Source: Myxococcota bacterium (lineage in GTDB: Bacteria > Myxococcota_A > UBA796 > CAJQPC01). From it: a stretch of 64,000 nt of DNA. Of the stretch, positions 1 to 10,399 are shown piece after piece. The stretch covers positions 1-64,000 of the forward strand of contig JAZAMN010000030.1 of the NCBI GenBank assembly GCA_036229005.1, written 5' to 3'. The notes under the pieces were generated by a model. That model was given only the letters and a program-made list of their open reading frames with translations, did not search any database and was not told the origin of the DNA. A program made the position numbers and the translations under genes. Each line of letters opens with the position of its first letter. The first letter of the stretch is position 1.

Positions 1-1451
1 GGTAGCGTCCCAGGAAGTGGTGTAGCAGCCCCCTCAGGTTGAAGAGGCGGTGGGGTTCTCCATAGACGTTGACTTGTCAACAACAACAACCTGGAGACCC
101 ACCGCTCATGGCCGACGTAGAAGATTTGACCGCACTCAGCAACACCCTTGTCCAGGCCCAGCCTGACTTCTTCCGGGAGCTCCTCAAGGAGGCGCTTCGG
201 GAGGTGATGGAGACCGAAGTCTCTGCCCTGACTGGCGCCACGCATGGAGAGCGCAGCGAGGCTCGCCTGAACCAGCGCAACGGGTACCGCTCTCGGGCAC
301 TCGAGACGCGAATGGGGACCGTAAATCTTGAGATTCCGCGCCTCCGAAAGGGAAGCTACTACCCAAGCTTTCTGGCTCCGCGTCGGCGTTGGGAGAAGGC
401 CTTTGTCAACGTGGTCAGCGAGGCCTACGTCCTGGGCGTCTCCACGCGCAAGGTGGAGGACTTGATGGAGGCGATGGGGGCCCAGGGGGTCAAGCGCAGC
501 GAGGTCTCGCGCATGGCCCAGGTCCTGGACCGCGAGGTCGACCTCTTCCGAAACAGGCACCTGGGGAAGAAGGCCCACCCCTACGTGTGGCTCGACGCCA
601 TCCACATCAAGACTCGGGACCACGGCCGCGTGGTCTCCAAGGCCGTCCTCATCGCCATCGGCGTGACGGAGACGGGCGAACGTCAGGTCCTCGGGATCGA
701 GGTCGCGCAGAAGGAGATGGCCAGCTCCTGGTCCCACTTCCTCGAAGGTTTGGTCACCCGCGGCCTGCGCGGGGTGCAGCTTGTGATCAGCGACGCCCAC
801 GCCGGCCTTCGCGCCGCGATTCCACGCGTGATGAACGGCTGCACATGGCAGCGCTGCAGCGTGCACTTCCTCCGCAACGTCCTCAGCGTGATCCCTCGCA
901 AGGCCCAGCAACTGGCCAGCGCCAGCATTCGCCACATCTTCCACCAGGCCTCCATCGAGGACGCCAAGCAAGCGCTCGGACGCGCAGTTGAGCTCCTCGA
1001 GCCCAAGTGGCCGCGCGCCGCCGAGCTGCTGCTTGAGGCCGAGGAGGACGTGCTTGCCTACATGCACTTCCCCGAGGCCCACTGGAGACAGCTCAAGTCC
1101 ACCAACCCGCTGGAGCGCCTGAACAAAGAGATCCGTCGCCGCACGGACGTGGTTGGCATCTTCCCCACCGACGCCTCCATCCTTCGGCTGGTCGGCATGC
1201 TGATGGTGGAGCACAGCGACGAATGGGAGGTCGGTCGTCGCTACTTCAGCCTGGCGAGCATGGCCAAGGTCACTGGCGCCGACCAGGTCCCTCCCCGAGC
1301 GCTGGAGCGGCTGTGACCGCCCCTCTACCCTGAACCTCCTTCCACTTCAGCGAGAGGGGACACCCCTCTCGCGCTCACCCCGATGAACCCAACGGAGTCA
1401 ACGGACTCGAAGAACCCCATCGACTCGTACACCACTTGACGGGACACACCT
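1..1451 (+). mobile_element. IS256-family insertion sequence
   Basis: Single transposase flanked by imperfect terminal inverted repeats: 1-25 ggtagcgtcccaggaagtggtgtag versus reverse complement of ~1427-1451 aggtgtgtcccgtcaagtggtgtac (shared gtccc-N3-aagtggtgta). Target duplication cannot be assessed because the window starts at the left end. Confidence 0.92.
108..1316 (+). CDS. IS256-family (Mutator-type) DDE transposase
   Basis: Motifs RNGYR, IPRLRKGSYYP, VWLDA, LVISDAHAGL, WQRCSVHF, STNPLERLNKEIRRRT. ATG 108 follows ggag. Confidence 0.95.
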   Translation: MADVEDLTALSNTLVQAQPDFFRELLKEALREVMETEVSALTGATHGERSEARLNQRNGYRSRALETRMGTVNLEIPRLRKGSYYPSFLAPRRRWEKAFVNVVSEAYVLGVSTRKVEDLMEAMGAQGVKRSEVSRMAQVLDREVDLFRNRHLGKKAHPYVWLDAIHIKTRDHGRVVSKAVLIAIGVTETGERQVLGIEVAQKEMASSWSHFLEGLVTRGLRGVQLVISDAHAGLRAAIPRVMNGCTWQRCSVHFLRNVLSVIPRKAQQLASASIRHIFHQASIEDAKQALGRAVELLEPKWPRAAELLLEAEEDVLAYMHFPEAHWRQLKSTNPLERLNKEIRRRTDVVGIFPTDASILRLVGMLMVEHSDEWEVGRRYFSLASMAKVTGADQVPPRALERL

Positions 1452-1601
1452 CGCTGCCCTTCTGCTTTGGAGCCGTTCCAAAGCAGGTGCTTCCTCTTGT
1501 TTCGCCGAGTCCCCGATTGGGTGAGGGGGCGATGTCAGACACGTGAAATGCGATGAAAGAGGGGGTCGCGGTACAAGTCAAATGCAAGTCGGGAAGAACC
1601 C

Positions 1602-2501
1602 ATGGTGCCTACAGCTCCCAACGCATACTCCGCGCAGAACGACACGCTTTCCCTGGCCGCGCTGGCCTGGCGAGAGCGGTGGACCGGGACCCTGGAGATC
1701 CAGGTCGGAGAGTCCACCCGGTCGGTATGTTTCAGGAATGGCGGGCCGGTGAAACCATCTGATTTCACCCTGCTGAACGCCTACGCCCTGCGGGACGCGG
1801 AGTTTCGCTTCGTCGAGAGTGCCGGACCCAAGGGCCTTCACGAGAGCTTGGGGCAGCTCCTGCTGCGCCTGGCCTCCAAGAAGGCGCTGGAGCTGAGCGG
1901 TGGACGGGTTCAGCTCGGGATCAACGCCGGCGACGCTGAGCTGCTGGAGCTCCCGGAGCCCTTGCTCACCCTGAGCTGCCGCCCCGGAGCCCGGCCCCAG
2001 GTCAGCGATCTGGCCGAGGATCTGGAGGCGCCCGAGCTGCTCGGGGCCCTGCTGCGCCTCGGCTTCCTGACCCACCACAAGGAGCAGGAGGTCACGCCCT
2101 TCGCGGATCCCTCCGTCGGCAACCTGCTCTCGGGCATGGTCGACCTGAACGCGGTGCTGGGTGACCTGGAGATCCCCCTGGACGAGGCCATCGAGTTCGA
2201 CCCCGTCGACGACCTGCTGGACCGGGTGCGCGGCCTGGCCGACCTGGGCCGCTGGGAGGAGGCCGATGGGCATCTGCGCAACTACGTGGGCTCGGTGGAT
2301 CGCTCGGAGCTGGCGGCGTGGCGCGGTTGGGTCCGCTTGAACTGCGGCTCCGTCCCGGTGCAAGAGAGAGTGCAAGGGGCGCTCAAGTGGGCGCGGCTCT
2401 CGGAGAAGCTACCCTTCGATCCGGAGGCTCAACTCTTGGGCCTGCGAATCCGTCATGAGGCTGACCGGCTGCTCAGGTCCCAGGAGGGTGAATGCGCATA
2501 A
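1602..2501 (+). CDS. Hypothetical protein with DUF4388/PATAN-like N-terminus and helical (TPR-like) C-terminus; paralog of 5236-6111
   Basis: N-terminal RWTGTLEIQVG...VCFRNGGPV resembles the DUF4388/PATAN TGxL...FxxG pattern. Overlaps the mglA start. Confidence 0.6.
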   Translation: MVPTAPNAYSAQNDTLSLAALAWRERWTGTLEIQVGESTRSVCFRNGGPVKPSDFTLLNAYALRDAEFRFVESAGPKGLHESLGQLLLRLASKKALELSGGRVQLGINAGDAELLELPEPLLTLSCRPGARPQVSDLAEDLEAPELLGALLRLGFLTHHKEQEVTPFADPSVGNLLSGMVDLNAVLGDLEIPLDEAIEFDPVDDLLDRVRGLADLGRWEEADGHLRNYVGSVDRSELAAWRGWVRLNCGSVPVQERVQGALKWARLSEKLPFDPEAQLLGLRIRHEADRLLRSQEGECA

Positions 2502-3088
2502 ACGCACGGAAGCGGGAGATCTCGCTCAAGATCGTCTACTACGGCCCCGGTCTGAGCGGGAAGACCACCAACCTCAAGTCCATCCACCGCTCCGCCCCCG
2601 ACAGCAACCGCGGCGAGCTGCTCGTGCTGGACACCGAGACCGAGCGCACCCTCTTCTTTGACTACTTCCCCCTCACCCTGGGGGAGCTGGACGGCTTCCG
2701 CGTCAAGCTGGACTTCTTCACGGTCCCCGGCCAGTCCTTCTACCAGCGCACCCGCGGTCTGGTGCTCAACGGTGCCGACGGCGCCGTGTTCGTCGCGGAC
2801 TCCAACCCCCGCCGCGAGCAGGCCAACCTCCTGAGCATGGAGGACCTGGTGGCCTCGCTCAAGGAAGAGGGCAAGGACCCGGCGAGCTTCCCCCTGGTGT
2901 TCCAGTGGAACAAACAGGACATGCGCGGCGCCGCCAAGCCCGCCACCCTCAACAAGCTCCTCAACCCCTACGGGCACCCGGCGTTCTCCGCCGTCGCCAT
3001 CCGGGGGGAGGGGGTCTCTGAGACCCAGCAGGCCATCGTCAAGGGGGTGCTCGACTCGCTGCGGAACCGCAAGAAGGCCTCCGCATGA
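2492..3088 (+). CDS. mglA: MglA-family small Ras-like GTPase
   Basis: KIVYYGPGLSGKTTNL (G1), TETERTLFFD (G2 with intrinsic Arg), TVPGQ (MglA-type G3), NKQD (G4). Probably a paralog rather than the main motility mglA. Confidence 0.9.
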   Translation: MRINARKREISLKIVYYGPGLSGKTTNLKSIHRSAPDSNRGELLVLDTETERTLFFDYFPLTLGELDGFRVKLDFFTVPGQSFYQRTRGLVLNGADGAVFVADSNPRREQANLLSMEDLVASLKEEGKDPASFPLVFQWNKQDMRGAAKPATLNKLLNPYGHPAFSAVAIRGEGVSETQQAIVKGVLDSLRNRKKASA

Positions 3089-3867
3089 GCACCGACACCC
3101 TTGGGGGGGCGCTCTCCGGGCTGGACCTCGCCTCGCTGCTCACCCAACAGGATGTGCAGACGGAGGAGTCCGCGCTGGAGGCCGTCTCTCGGGACATCGC
3201 CCGGGATCTGGTCGAGGTCGTCGCGCTCTCCGGCTCCCAGCTCCTCTCCGGTCGGGACGAGGGGCGGGTGCTCGAGCAGCTCGCTGACGGCCTGGGATCC
3301 CTGATGCGCCTCGCCCGTGCCTCGCAGGACCCAGAGCACATCGCGCTGCTCGAAGGCCTGGATGGGGCGTTGGTGAGCTACCGGGGGAAGAGGGGCAAGA
3401 GTGGCCCTCGACATGCCTTCCTCAACACCCTCAGGGACTGGCTGCCCCGCTACGGTAGCTACCTTGGGGGTGACAGCGAGGAGCGGCTGACCGCGCTCGT
3501 GGAGTTCAACAGCGATGAGCTGCCCCTGTTCGCTGAACTCGCCAACATCCGGGGGATCGGTCCCCGTCGCCTGCGGCGGCTTCATGGCGCGGGCTTCTAC
3601 CAGGCGGCCAGCCTGAGCCACGCCGACCCCGAAGAGCTCGCGGCCGTGACCGGCCTGCCCCGGAAGCTGGCGGCCGACGTGATCGCCGAGAGCGCGGCCT
3701 GGCAGGAAGAGCAGCGGCGCCGCGCTGTCGTGGACATGAACCGCCGGCTGCAGGACTTCCAGCGCGCTGTGTCCGCCCTCAAGCAGGAGGGGAACGGTGA
3801 GCTGCTGTCTGCGGCGCAAGAGGCGATGAACAGCATGCGGGCGATGCTCGCCGACCTGGAGGGCTGA
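3085..3867 (+). CDS. Helix-hairpin-helix domain protein with C-terminal coiled coil
   Basis: LANIRGIGPRRLRRLHGAGF...ADPEELAAVTGL tandem HhH. ATGA overlap with mglA. Confidence 0.75.
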   Translation: MSTDTLGGALSGLDLASLLTQQDVQTEESALEAVSRDIARDLVEVVALSGSQLLSGRDEGRVLEQLADGLGSLMRLARASQDPEHIALLEGLDGALVSYRGKRGKSGPRHAFLNTLRDWLPRYGSYLGGDSEERLTALVEFNSDELPLFAELANIRGIGPRRLRRLHGAGFYQAASLSHADPEELAAVTGLPRKLAADVIAESAAWQEEQRRRAVVDMNRRLQDFQRAVSALKQEGNGELLSAAQEAMNSMRAMLADLEG

Positions 3868-4398
3868 GTGACGTTCAAGGAACTGCGAGAGCGCGTGGCT
3901 GCACGCACCGGTCTGCCCCAGGCGACCGTCGACAAGGTGGTGCGGGCGCTGCTCGCCGAGATCCAGGAGGCCATCATCGACGGGAAGCGCATCCCCTTGC
4001 CTGGGGTGGGCACCCTGGAGCGGAGCTGGCGGCCCGAGCGGGTGGTGCGCTCCATCCAGAGCGCGCGCCGCATGCCGGTGGACGCCCGCTGGTCGCCGCG
4101 CTTTCGGCCGGCGAAGGCCCTCAAGGAGGGGCTGCTGGCCCTGACCACGCAGTACTACGGGGACCCCGCGCACCAGGCGGCCTGGGCGGTGGCGGAGACC
4201 CTGGTCGGCGACCTGGAGCTGTACCACTCCGATCAGATCCCCGCGGACCTGGCGGGGCTCGACCTTGAGCAGGTCTCCGCGCGCTGCGAGCGGGCCTTTG
4301 GGGAGTCCTGGACCCGCGCTGTGGAGTCCTACCGGGCGAAAGCCAAGGTCGACCGGGACCACCTGTCCGCCGCAGCGCAGCGGGCCTGGGCGAGCTAG
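3868..4398 (+). CDS. HU/IHF-family DNA-binding protein with ~85-aa C-terminal extension
   Basis: TFKELRERVAARTGL...LPGVGTL...PRFRPAKALKE is HU-fold. Starts immediately after the upstream stop codon. Confidence 0.8.
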   Translation: MTFKELRERVAARTGLPQATVDKVVRALLAEIQEAIIDGKRIPLPGVGTLERSWRPERVVRSIQSARRMPVDARWSPRFRPAKALKEGLLALTTQYYGDPAHQAAWAVAETLVGDLELYHSDQIPADLAGLDLEQVSARCERAFGESWTRAVESYRAKAKVDRDHLSAAAQRAWAS

Positions 4399-4410
4399 TT
4401 CTCCGAATCG

Positions 4411-4441
4411 CAAGTCCCAACACCCTTGGTGTCGGGACTTG
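4411..4441 (+). terminator. Stem-loop after the HU-like gene
   Basis: caagtcccaacacc-ctt-ggtgtcgggacttg inverted repeat; no poly-U tail. Confidence 0.5.
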
Positions 4442-4634
4442 CGGCTCAGAGAACTATTGTCTTCTCCGGGGGACACCCCCGGAATGCGCCTCCGGCGCAC
4501 CCCCGCGGGCCCACTTGGGCCCGGCGTTCTGCCGGACTCTCCATATTGTGACTTCGGACCGGCAGAACTAGAAGGCGCTCGCGAGCCTGTACCCGGCCGC
4601 CGCGTGGGTTAGGGCTCCTGCACCAAGCAGGAGC

Positions 4635-5090
4635 GTGCTCGTGAGCCTCTTTGACGACGTGGTGGCCTTCTTCGACTCGGACGACTGGAAGACCCAGCGG
4701 ATGGACGACCCCTCGGCCCTGGTGATGGGCTTCGTGGGCGACTCGGCGCGGTGGCAGTGCTACTGCAAGGTGCGCGAAGAGCAGCACCAGATCCTCTTCT
4801 ACAGCATCGCGCCCGTCGCGGTCCCCGAGGAGCAGCGCGCGCAGGTGAGCGAGTTCATCACCCGCGCCAACTACGGCTTGATCGTGGGGAACCTGGAGAT
4901 GGACTTTGTGGACGGCGAGGTCCGCTACAAGTCTGCCATCGACGTGGAGGGCGCCGAGTTCTCTCCGGCCCTGGTGCGCAACCTGGTCTACGCCAACGTG
5001 CTGACCATGGACCGCTACCTGCCGGGCCTGCTGGCCATGATCCACGGCGACGCGAGCGCGAGCGATGCGATCGCCAAGGTCGAGGGCTGA
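4635..5090 (+). CDS. YbjN-domain (T3SS-chaperone-like fold) protein
   Basis: EFITRANYGLIVGNLEMDFVDGEVRYKSAID is typical of the YbjN family. Confidence 0.8.
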   Translation: MLVSLFDDVVAFFDSDDWKTQRMDDPSALVMGFVGDSARWQCYCKVREEQHQILFYSIAPVAVPEEQRAQVSEFITRANYGLIVGNLEMDFVDGEVRYKSAIDVEGAEFSPALVRNLVYANVLTMDRYLPGLLAMIHGDASASDAIAKVEG

Positions 5091-5235
5091 GGCGAGATTC
5101 GGGGCTGAATCCCGACTTCTGTGCGCAAAACAGGGGGCCCACGTACGGGGTTTCCTGTAATCGGGATGCAAGCGCCTCAGAGGGCATCTACAGGATGAAT
5201 GCGGTCGTCAGACTTCCATTCTCTGGTGGTGCCCT

Positions 5236-6111
5236 ATGGTTGACGACATCGACTCCGGATCTGCGCTCTCTGTTGCCGCCCTCGCCTGGCGGGAACGCTG
5301 GACGGGCCGACTCCAGATCCAGGTTGGACAGCGCTTGGTGGACATGCCCTTTCGCCAGGGTAGCCCCTCCAACGCCTCCCAGTTCAGCCTGCTCAACGCC
5401 TACTGGCGCAAGCCGGCGCAGTTCACCTTCGAGGAGCGCTCGGGGCCCCGGAGCTTCCGCGCCAGCCTCGGTCAGCTCCTGATCCGTCTGGGCAAGCGCA
5501 CGGCCAGCCCGCTGGAAGGGGGCCAGGTGCGCCTGCTCATCCAGCGGGAAGACGTGGATGGGTTGGCGCTTCCCGAGGCGTTCGAGCAGCTCCTCGCCAA
5601 GCCCGGCGGACGCGCCTGCACCCAGGATCTGAGTGAGGCGCTGGAAGACCCCAAGCTGCTTGGAGCGATGGCCGCGCTCGGGATGCTCGAGCACAGCACG
5701 GCCCCGGTCGTCCAGCCCTCGGAGCCCTGCGTCAAGCAGCTCCTGGACGGCGAGAGCAGCCTGGATCTCTTCCTGGGGGACCTGTCCCTGGAGGATCTGG
5801 TCACCCCGGAACGCGACCCCACCGACCAGCTCCTGGGAGATGTCCGGGCCCTGACCGAGCAGGGGCAGTGGCGCGAGGCCAACCGCCTGATGCGCGACTT
5901 TGTGGGCAGCGTCGAGCGCTCCGCCCTGGCCGCCTGGCGCGCCTGGGTCGCCCTCAACGACGACAGCGTCGCCGAGCGCGAGCGGGTCGTGGAGGCGCTG
6001 CGCTGGGCACGGCTGGCCGAGCGACTGCCTCCGGAGGACGAGGCCGGCTGGCTGTGTCAGCAGGTGTTCGCCGCCTCCGAGGGCGCTGGCCAGACGCTGC
6101 GCTGTGCGTGA
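5236..6111 (+). CDS. Paralog of 1602-2501 (DUF4388/PATAN-like)
   Basis: Shares AALAWRERWTG, LLNAY, SLGQLLxRL, VGSVxRSxLAAWRxWV and ALxWARL with 1602-2501. Confidence 0.7.
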   Translation: MVDDIDSGSALSVAALAWRERWTGRLQIQVGQRLVDMPFRQGSPSNASQFSLLNAYWRKPAQFTFEERSGPRSFRASLGQLLIRLGKRTASPLEGGQVRLLIQREDVDGLALPEAFEQLLAKPGGRACTQDLSEALEDPKLLGAMAALGMLEHSTAPVVQPSEPCVKQLLDGESSLDLFLGDLSLEDLVTPERDPTDQLLGDVRALTEQGQWREANRLMRDFVGSVERSALAAWRAWVALNDDSVAERERVVEALRWARLAERLPPEDEAGWLCQQVFAASEGAGQTLRCA

Positions 6112-8182: not shown

Positions 8183-10399
8183 GTGACGCCGCTGCTCGCT
8201 GGACTGGCCGCCCTGCTGCTGGGGATCGGTGCGCTGCTGCGCTCTCCCTGGGCGCGCGCGCCGCTGTCTCTGGGGTTGCTCGCCGTGTTGGGGCTGCAGC
8301 TCGCCCGCGAAGCCTGGCTGCTGCCGGGGATCCTGGCGGCCCTCGGGGCGGGGCTGTTGTGGCTGCCCCGAGAGCGCCTCCGCCTCTATGGCGCCGCGCT
8401 GGCCTCCCTGCTCTGTCTGGGGACCAGCCTCGCCCACGGGCGCCTGCGCCACGACACCCAGGCCTGCACGCTCCAGCCACCCGCGCCCCGCGCGCCCACC
8501 CAGCCCCTCCCAGAGAGCGCGCCCCCGGGCGGCCGGGTCGACCTCTTCACGCAGCCCGCCCAGGTCTCCGGCCAGGCCCAGGCCCCCCGCAGCCTCGCGG
8601 TGGAGCAGAGCTGGGGTCAGGGCGCCCAGGTCGCGGTGCAGGCGCCCTTCCCGGTGGCCTTTGTCGAGATCCAGGTCCAGGCCGCCGAGCCCACCACCCT
8701 GCGCGTGTTTCCCTCCGGCAGCGGCGACTTCACCGAGGTCGAGCGCGGTCAGGCGGAGCTCCAGCTCGCGGTCTCCGCAGGCCCGCAGACCCTGCGCGCG
8801 GACATCGAGGAGATCCTGCTCGGCGGCTGGAACGGGGCCCAGGCCCTCTCCGGACTGTCCCTGCAGTTGGAGGGCCCCGGCGAGATCGGCGAGGTCCGGC
8901 TGCTGGCCCCAGAGGCGCGCCTGGAGCAGCCCGTCTCCCAGGTGCAGGCGCAGGTCCAGGGGGTGCTGCGGCCTTCGTGGGCGGTGCAGGCGGGGGCTGA
9001 GGTGAGGCTCGTGGCCCCCAGCACGGGTGTGCTCACCTTCTACACAGCCAGTCCGGGTGGGGGATCGGCTCAGCTTGTCCTCGCCGGCGAGGAGATCGTC
9101 AGGCGCTCGGGACCGGGCTGGTCCCGGCACGAAGTGCCGGTCGTGGTGGGCCAAGAGCTGGTGTTCCGCAGCGAGGCCTCCTCCTCCTTCTTCGGGAGCC
9201 CGCAGATCCTGTCCCCGGCGAAGGCGGCGCCCAACGTGGTGGTCTACCTGGTGGACACCCTGCGGGCCGACCACGTGGGCTTCTGGGGCGGGGCGGCCAC
9301 CCCGAACATGGACCGGCTGGCGCAGGAGGGCGCGGTGTTCTCGTGGGCCCTGAGCACCGGGAGCTGGACCAAGCCGACCATCCCGACCCTGATGAGCGGG
9401 GTGCACCCAGGGACCCACCAGGTGGGCGCCCTCAGCAACACCGACCGCGTGCCCCCGGACCTGCTGCTGATGCAGGAGCGCTTTGCGCAGGGTGGCTGGG
9501 CGACGGCGAGCTTCTCGGCCAGCCCGCTGGGGAGCACGCTGTCGGGGCTGGACCGGGGCTTCGATGTGGCCTTGCCGCCCGCCTACTGGGAGGTGGACCG
9601 CAGCGCCGCCCAGACCCCGCCGGACAGCGCGCTGATCCAGGAGCTGCTGGACTGGCTGGACGCGCAGCAGCGGCCGGGCTTTGCCTACGTGCACACCCTG
9701 GACGTGCACCAGTACTACCTGCGCGGCGGGGTGGAAGACCGCAGCCACGCCAACTACCTGGACGCCATCCAGCAGGCCGACGCGCAGCTCGGGGCGCTGA
9801 TCTCGGCGCTGGAGGCCCGCCCGGAGCCCACGCTGCTGGTGCTGGTCTCGGACCACGGGGAGAGCTTCCACGACCACGGGCTCTGGTCGCACGGGACGGG
9901 ATTGGCGCTGTCCCAGACCCATGTGCCCTGGGTGTTCTGGCGCTCCGACGGCGCGCTGGTCCCCCAGACCCACACCCAGCCGGTGAGCCTGATGGACCTG
10001 GCGCCCACGCTGCTGGACTGGATGGGCCTGCCGCCCCTGCCCGAGGCCGAGGGGGTGAGCCGCGTGCCGCTGATGCAGGGCCTGGGGATGGAGCAGCAGG
10101 CCCAGGTCAGCTCGCTGTTCCGCTTCACCTGGAAGCCCGACGCGCCGCAGCAGCACACCCTGGTCGGGCCCGGGGGCCGCAAGCTCTGGTGGACCGGGGA
10201 GCGGCTGCTGGCCTTCGACCTGGAGGCGGACCCCTGCGAGGCGCGAAGTCGGGTGCTTCAGGAGGACCCCGCGCTCCAGGCCTGGCTGGCGCGGCAGCCC
10301 CAAGACGCCCAACGCTTCACGGAGCGGCACGGTCAGGTGGCGGGGACGCTGAGCCCCCAGGAGGAGGAGCGGCTGCGGCTGCTCGGCTACATCGAATAG
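8183..10399 (+). CDS. Membrane-anchored sulfatase-like (alkaline phosphatase superfamily) protein
   Basis: PNVVVYLVDTLRADH, SWTKPT, VSDHGE..DHG, C-terminal LRLLGYIE. GTG start inferred. Confidence 0.8.
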   Translation: MTPLLAGLAALLLGIGALLRSPWARAPLSLGLLAVLGLQLAREAWLLPGILAALGAGLLWLPRERLRLYGAALASLLCLGTSLAHGRLRHDTQACTLQPPAPRAPTQPLPESAPPGGRVDLFTQPAQVSGQAQAPRSLAVEQSWGQGAQVAVQAPFPVAFVEIQVQAAEPTTLRVFPSGSGDFTEVERGQAELQLAVSAGPQTLRADIEEILLGGWNGAQALSGLSLQLEGPGEIGEVRLLAPEARLEQPVSQVQAQVQGVLRPSWAVQAGAEVRLVAPSTGVLTFYTASPGGGSAQLVLAGEEIVRRSGPGWSRHEVPVVVGQELVFRSEASSSFFGSPQILSPAKAAPNVVVYLVDTLRADHVGFWGGAATPNMDRLAQEGAVFSWALSTGSWTKPTIPTLMSGVHPGTHQVGALSNTDRVPPDLLLMQERFAQGGWATASFSASPLGSTLSGLDRGFDVALPPAYWEVDRSAAQTPPDSALIQELLDWLDAQQRPGFAYVHTLDVHQYYLRGGVEDRSHANYLDAIQQADAQLGALISALEARPEPTLLVLVSDHGESFHDHGLWSHGTGLALSQTHVPWVFWRSDGALVPQTHTQPVSLMDLAPTLLDWMGLPPLPEAEGVSRVPLMQGLGMEQQAQVSSLFRFTWKPDAPQQHTLVGPGGRKLWWTGERLLAFDLEADPCEARSRVLQEDPALQAWLARQPQDAQRFTERHGQVAGTLSPQEEERLRLLGYIE

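Follow-up and report, generated by a model that had tools for sequence, protein, structure and literature searches.

The operon considered here raises the question of what a small GTPase of the MglA type does beside two putative DNA-binding proteins when no roadblock gene accompanies it. The operon was found in a 64,000-nucleotide stretch (the window) of contig JAZAMN010000030.1 from the Myxococcota bacterium assembly GCA_036229005.1. It encodes a PATAN-like protein (gene 1), MglA (gene 2), a helix-hairpin-helix (HhH) protein (gene 3) and an HU protein with an additional domain (gene 4). A first-pass annotation had interpreted it as a GTPase switch which lacks the roadblock protein MglB and is coupled to the nucleoid. 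According to the analysis reported here, uncultured marine cells resembling myxobacteria have a conserved cassette of which the operon is a trimmed copy. The conserved unit consists of MglA, a PATAN/TPR protein, two roadblock proteins, an HhH protein and an extended HU; a protoglobin, ODP or V4R-like gene is frequently present as well. The contig bearing the window is named C30, and C4, C8, C18, C24, C54 and C69 are other contigs of the same genome.

For 36 distinct extended-HU genes, the neighbours within 5 kb were recorded, ten rows being from loci chosen by MglA. MglA was present at 34 loci, an HhH gene at 32, a roadblock gene at 29, a PATAN gene at 28 and a sensor-type gene at 20 (protoglobin 10, V4R-like 6, ODP 5); the protoglobins of the cassettes match Pfam with an E-value of 4e-33. 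Among the 26 HU genes which were found without using MglA, 24 have MglA and 21 a roadblock nearby, and the two lacking MglA have less than 1.6 kb of contig upstream. The gene neighbourhood was conserved in part: MglA and HhH genes accompany the extended HU, whereas the exact gene order of the window, with this gene 1, occurs at one of the 36 loci. Seven loci have no roadblock gene within 5 kb (the window, L027, L035, L039, L077, L115 and L121). Five of these are in genomes with a roadblock-bearing cassette elsewhere, including L027, L035, L039 and L115, at which MglA is followed directly by HU–RomX. At L077, a PATAN-roadblock fusion lies some 6 kb upstream, and L027, L035 and L121 are shortened by contig ends. 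Genome G371 shows the same split as the window genome: the roadblock-bearing cassette (L123) has only the first 45 profile positions of the HU, and a whole pair of MglA and HU–RomX lies on another contig (L115).

Three MglA genes were detected in the window genome by tblastn and profile searches. The C18 cassette contains MglA, PATAN/TPR, roadblock B, HhH, extended HU, roadblock A, ODP and a second HhH gene, and the C24 cassette contains MglA, PATAN/TPR, roadblock B, HhH and the first half of roadblock A. Contig C69 opens with the second half of roadblock A followed by two V4R-like genes, and the join between C24 and C69 was deduced from this split gene. In total, four roadblock genes are found in two paralogous cassettes. 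Roadblock A matches Robl_LC7 (E 3e-15) and MglB (E 8e-4). Roadblock B has weak matches, and all 21 of its 21 PDB matches at E ≤ 1 are of the roadblock family (best 0.016). The ODP gene was assigned with E 2e-66; ODP proteins sense oxygen and iron. The C69 genes and their relatives in the cassettes, which we take to be V4R-like, had no match in Pfam, NCBIfam or PDB sequence searches; the two C69 genes stand in tandem (L132, 175–1197) and are 91% identical. Neither a stand-alone RomX nor a canonical mglB-mglA pair was found in the genome, which is 94% complete. As first noted, no roadblock gene is present in the window, nor was one found anywhere on C30 or on the upstream contig C4. The further claim of an MglB-less system was rejected at the level of the family and of the genome, given the roadblocks at 29 of 36 loci and in the two sister cassettes.

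The gene sets of the window and of C24 are complementary. A 20-nt stop/start-overlap sequence at the MglA/HhH junction of the window (3080–3099) is identical to the PATAN/roadblock-B junction of C18 (L002, about 9899–9918) and has no other copy in the genome. This shared junction may be the scar of a deletion which removed the roadblock, or may be due to gene conversion.

Gene 4 was correctly recognized in the first-pass annotation as HU with an extra domain. Its residues 1–87 match Pfam Bac_DNA_binding (E 3e-18), and about 85 additional residues follow. In the AlphaFold model, with a pLDDT (score of the predicted local distance difference test) of 94.5, residues 1–93 match HU/IHF with a Z-score of 10.7 (Hbb; Foldseek E 3e-7). 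The best structural match of residues 97–176 is RomX (8ZNA; Z 7.5, root mean square deviation (rmsd) 2.9, 69 residues aligned), the next unrelated row having a Z-score of 5.1. A profile of this domain has RomX 8ZNA as top PDB sequence match (E 0.21) and gives a profile-profile probability of 96.7% with stand-alone RomX proteins, six of which match 8ZNA at E 1.4e-32. Searched against 301 genomes, the profile hits cassette-type HUs strongly in 12 genomes and, more weakly, stand-alone RomX and larger fusions. By these three routes (sequence profile, structure and profile-profile comparison), the extra domain is a homologue of RomX. A third match of the RomX-like profile in the window genome (C8, E 0.77) was discarded as an unrelated frame. 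Stand-alone degenerate HU–RomX genes without cassette neighbours were seen at L078 and L079, the former lacking the motif equivalent to Asp19 of RomX.

Gene 2 matches M. xanthus MglA in the PDB with E 9e-53. According to the passages of PMC4316618 on the matter, Group 1 MglA proteins are marked by an intrinsic Arg beside the G2 Thr, a G3 motif TVPGQ, a G4 motif NKxD and a length of 150–240 amino acids. The window protein shows all of these, having G1 GPGLSGKT, R52-T53, TVPGQ at 77–81, NKQD at 140–143 and 198 amino acids, and the intact G motifs and intrinsic Arg read from the sequence at first are thereby upheld. Phylogeny was inferred by a quick IQ-TREE run on 67 rows, with M. xanthus MglA not among the rows and a careful search unfinished. 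In this tree the cassette MglAs form a clade of 43 (Shimodaira–Hasegawa-like approximate likelihood ratio test, SH-aLRT, 97), separate from five mglB-mglA rows, and the MglAs of the window and of C24 are sisters (SH-aLRT 97–98). A clade joining the window MglA with the five mglB-mglA rows was rejected by the approximately unbiased (AU) test (p = 2.3e-6; 33 of the 67 rows). By this quick tree, the window protein, which also has no mglB directly upstream, is not a canonical motility MglA.

Both partner surfaces were compared with those of M. xanthus. In the relevant passages of PMC11016934, the β2 strand of MglA faces MglB, and this hydrophobic strand is kept in the window MglA. RomX binds MglA-GTP in Myxococcus; its Arg11, Arg14 and Asp19 face Glu108, Glu111 and Glu115 of MglA, and no binding of MglA-GTP is seen with the R11A,R14A mutant (10.1101/2024.02.20.581209, in the passages available). 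The equivalent positions of the HU–RomX proteins are Arg in 55, Glu in 52 and Asp in 57 of 57 homologues; in the window they are Ala, Glu and Asp. The equivalent of MglA Glu115 is missing from the cassette MglAs, a Glu being found there in 5/5 canonical rows, and 40 of 41 cassette MglAs have acquired a Glu one turn earlier. Judging by the aligned residues, the shifted acidic positions may indicate a rewired RomX interface, a single evolutionary event that is only suggestive. The HU–RomX proteins of two other families (L057 and L064) keep the HU arm proline as well as RomX Arg11 and Arg14 and have the same gene context. Across 56 homologues, the arginines of the HU arm are conserved (R58 in 52, R61 in 56, R67 in 50). 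An intercalating proline at the arm tip is a feature of HU/IHF; this position is Val in 34, Ile in 14, Pro in 7 and Leu in 1 of the 56, the window protein having Ile63.

Gene 3 matches Pfam HHH_5 (E 5e-12). Its structural model (pLDDT 86.7) shows a four-helix bundle, an HhH domain like that of RadA/Rad51-N and a helical hairpin. Foldseek returned nothing at E ≤ 0.001 and only HhH rows of the RadA/Rad51-N and NusA-AR2 kind. The bundle resembles the P1 (HPt) domain of CheA (Z 11.8, rmsd 2.8, 102 aligned), with which designed four-helix bundles tie, and no phospho-accepting His is conserved in a 19-row alignment. Membership in the HhH family suggests that the protein binds DNA. The family comprises 103 clusters at E ≤ 1e-30, and the window protein deviates from its conserved Gln. 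Full-length HhH genes were found in 11 of 301 genomes sampled from the phylum, all of the class of the window. Fusions to other cassette domains were seen in 0 of 150 family members; in distant members, a Ser/Thr kinase (2/13 scanned) or a zinc ribbon with a long linker upstream (2/13) is fused (P0220, P0223, P0267, P0273). A link to RomY was considered and finds no support in the passages of PMC9481161 seen.

Gene 1 had been called DUF4388/PATAN-like. In favor of this, its Atlas feature score to PatA_N clusters is 0.91 and 10/10 best matches belong to the PatA_N family or clan; the Pfam match (DUF4388, PF14332) has E 0.028 and 14.9 bits, under the cut-off of 25, and the profile comparison with the PATAN gene of the cassette is not significant (probability 2%). 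Two homologues were found outside the genome. By likeness to the PATAN/TPR gene of the cassette, the C-terminus is probably TPR-like helical.

The RomX-type domain of the HU protein makes it likely that the target of the MglA switch is a chromosome-binding protein and not motility. The reading we prefer is that the RomX-like domain binds MglA-GTP, which in this way governs a DNA-bound HU dimer or is tethered by it, with roadblocks acting in trans; a probability of roughly 0.55 is assigned to it. The effector rather than guanine nucleotide exchange factor (GEF) role of RomRX described in passages of PMC13408092 fits an output role for the domain. By analogy to M. xanthus, MglA-GTP would dock on helix 1 of the RomX-like domain. 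The HU domain would dimerize and bind DNA with its arms, whereby MglA-GTP would be tethered to the nucleoid or would alter HU binding. The two roadblocks would form a heterodimeric or paired GTPase-activating protein (GAP), and those of C18 or C24 would reset the window MglA in trans. Protoglobin, ODP or V4R-like proteins might supply the roadblock level with a signal (gas, iron or a ligand), and the PATAN and HhH proteins might serve as scaffolds or second DNA contacts. After duplication, HU–RomX would have disappeared from the C24 copy, which retained the roadblocks and V4R-like genes, and the roadblocks would have disappeared from the window copy, which retained HU–RomX. The first proposal of a GTPase linked to a nucleoid protein thus gains from the separate MglA clade tied to HU and HhH genes and from the RomX-homologous domain, and loses its MglB-less framing; for a role in DNA uptake, no evidence was found.

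Several observations weigh against this reading. The window protein is the sole one with Ala at the Arg11 position, at which 54 of 56 homologues have Arg, and it also lacks R173, an Arg in 52/56. In 54/56 of the HU–RomX family, an acidic residue (Glu or Asp) occupies the Arg14 position; with Glu there and Ala at Arg11, the window copy has neither RomX arginine. As the arm proline is replaced by Val or Ile in 48/56, DNA bending may differ. The direct sequence match to RomX is weak, the structural Z-score of 7.5 is of a size that common helical arrangements also reach, and the profile link is partly circular because the stand-alone RomX rows were collected with the same HU-domain profile which they then match. 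Sensor genes occur at only 20 of the 36 loci and not in the window operon. The lack of HU–RomX in the C24 cassette rests on the inferred join to C69. One metatranscriptome has contigs over 4682–5126 and 5251–5485 only and is uninformative on the expression of the four genes.

The four operon genes are real and under purifying selection. Their tight coupling, described in the first-pass annotation, is confirmed by a 10-nt overlap of genes 1 and 2, an ATGA overlap of genes 2 and 3 and the abutting TGA/GTG of genes 3 and 4. Positions 1452–4424 are contained without gaps in single contigs of two marine metagenomes from separate studies, and since these independent contigs span the operon, the gene order is no misassembly. 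Between strains, 16 of 19 altered codons among the variants listed are synonymous, compared to 26% expected, and all four frames are intact. Together these data rule out a misassembly or a pseudogene. No σ70 promoter and no terminator beyond chance were found in 1300–5300.

Alternatively, the family may work as described and the window copy be uncoupled, its HU–RomX being a plain accessory nucleoid protein or a heterodimer partner which tunes the HU–RomX of C18. The two missing arginines of the RomX domain, the departure of the HhH protein from the conserved Gln, the near-orphan gene 1 and the absence of roadblock and sensor genes in cis all point in this direction. We consider it unlikely, as the frames are intact and the changes between strains mostly synonymous, the core positions Asp19, Trp and Tyr of RomX are retained in the window domain, and the acidic partner positions of MglA are also shifted in the cassette clade, which permits a rewired interface.

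Rather unlikely is a spatial module for polarity or cell division, in which HU is a mere nucleoid anchor or no longer binds DNA and the output is the positioning of pili or another machine via PATAN/TPR. Characterized Group 1 MglA, RomX and roadblock proteins all act in polarity, functions on DNA can be lost in divergent HU domains (HU-CCDC81, in passages of PMC5499826), and cassette copies could fill the role in a genome in which no canonical mglB-mglA pair or stand-alone RomX was found. However, no motility genes were recognized beside the cassette in the loci inspected (no systematic scan was made), the cassette is patchy (HhH gene in 9/60 relatives and 0/3 same-genus genomes), unlike a core motility gene, and the arm arginines of HU are conserved.

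A roadblock-independent switch, with gene 1 or the HhH protein replacing the GAP, is very improbable: seven loci lack a nearby roadblock, orphan MglAs such as SofG and Bdellovibrio MglA are functional, and gene 1 is unusual and translationally coupled, but five of the seven are in genomes with roadblock-bearing cassettes, one (L077) has the distant fusion, three are truncated by contig ends, the MglB-facing strand is conserved, and no evidence supporting the suggested use of gene 1 as GAP or GEF was found.

Going beyond the preferred reading of an MglA-controlled HU–RomX, a wider scheme is possible, which we put forward only tentatively. In it, oxygen- or iron-sensing protoglobin, ODP or V4R-like proteins would set the level of MglA-GTP via the two-roadblock GAP, and MglA-GTP would bind the HU-fused RomX, whereby the chromosome would be remodelled or read. 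Rewiring would have made a gas-sensing chromatin switch out of the polarity switch of Myxococcus, the altered charges of the interface would insulate it from motility MglA, and reduced copies of MglA and HU–RomX would share regulators in trans.

As far as the passages cited describe the M. xanthus MglA/MglB/RomR-RomX module, the cassette shares with it an MglA of Group 1 that has the intrinsic Arg, a domain of RomX fold and, where the cassette is complete, roadblock partners. It differs in that RomX is fused to HU instead of being stand-alone or joined to a receiver, no RomR-type receiver gene being recognized. Furthermore, the MglA of the cassette groups in a clade of its own, Glu replaces RomX Arg14, MglA Glu115 is lost, the two roadblocks are dissimilar, and HhH and PATAN genes are added. 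The parts of PMC4316618 covered report PATAN genes near Group 1 and 5 MglA, systems with two MglB per MglA, orphan MglAs arising by loss and, for Group 3, a proposed DNA-binding (winged helix-turn-helix) output. The cassette shares the nearby PATAN gene, the two roadblocks per MglA and a putative DNA-binding output; HU, HhH and RomX partners do not appear in those parts, and Group 3 MglAs carry GTPGQ and no intrinsic Arg, whereas the window MglA has Arg and TVPGQ. A haem sensor linked to a roadblock is also known from HGbRL, a globin-roadblock fusion of Methylacidiphilum, whose genome has an MglA/MglB-like pair (PMC4476040, in part). In HGbRL, globin and roadblock make up one protein encoded outside the GTPase operon, whereas the sensor genes of the cassette are separate, interchangeable and absent from the window copy. 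The HU fold and basic arms are shared with the HU/IHF superfamily as presented in passages of PMC5499826, in contrast to the C-terminal RomX-like domain and the mostly replaced arm proline; the text seen there mentions neither roadblocks nor myxobacteria and a GTPase once, in an unrelated context. The literature searched gave no account of the cassette or of HU–RomX, although the RomX preprint and PMC4316618 have supplementary tables beyond that search which could list such proteins; the passages seen of PMC5499826, PMC2253512, PMC4476040, PMC11016934, PMC9481161 and 10.64898/2026.10.19.760177 do not describe the cassette.

Table 1. Positions of the operon genes and adjacent features in the window
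Feature	Position	Strand	Description
Gene 1	1602..2501	+	divergent PATAN (DUF4388/PatA_N)-like protein, 299 amino acids, near-orphan family
Gene 2	2492..3088	+	small GTPase MglA (Group 1) belonging to the cassette clade; sister to the C24 paralogue
Gene 3	3085..3867	+	HhH protein with an acidic peptide at the N-terminus, a four-helix bundle (about 26–130), HhH_5 (149–202) and a helical hairpin at the C-terminus
Gene 4	3868..4398	+	HU–RomX fusion: HU/IHF domain (1–90) and RomX-like helical domain (97–176)
Gene 1 paralogue	5236..6111	+	stand-alone, outside the operon; 49% identical to gene 1
Transposase	69..1316		IS256/Mutator family (Pfam E 3e-128)
Intergenic repeat	4399..4572		roughly 175 bp, straight after the HU stop codon
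YbjN-family gene	4635..5090		situated after the operon and before the gene 1 paralogue; Pfam E 4e-10

The surroundings of the operon are listed in Table 1. The transposase belongs to an element at about 1–1451, about 150 bp upstream of the operon, and the 8-bp target duplication of this insertion sequence links C30 to C4. The insertion looks strain-specific, because contigs of two other strains diverge from the window at position 1452. The intergenic repeat has 24 BLAST matches in the genome including itself (79–97% among the matches listed), several at contig ends. A second copy of the YbjN-family gene is on C54; in the loci inspected, this gene lies outside the cassette.

The MglA GTPases of Group 1 that have been characterized direct motility and polarity. 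If the reading proposed here is true, the HU-fused RomX would be a direct physical route from a Group 1 MglA switch to DNA. The interest of the operon does not come from an absent GAP; its four proteins make a system small enough for in vitro work, and its architecture suggests that RomX is a portable module reading MglA-GTP which can be attached to new outputs.

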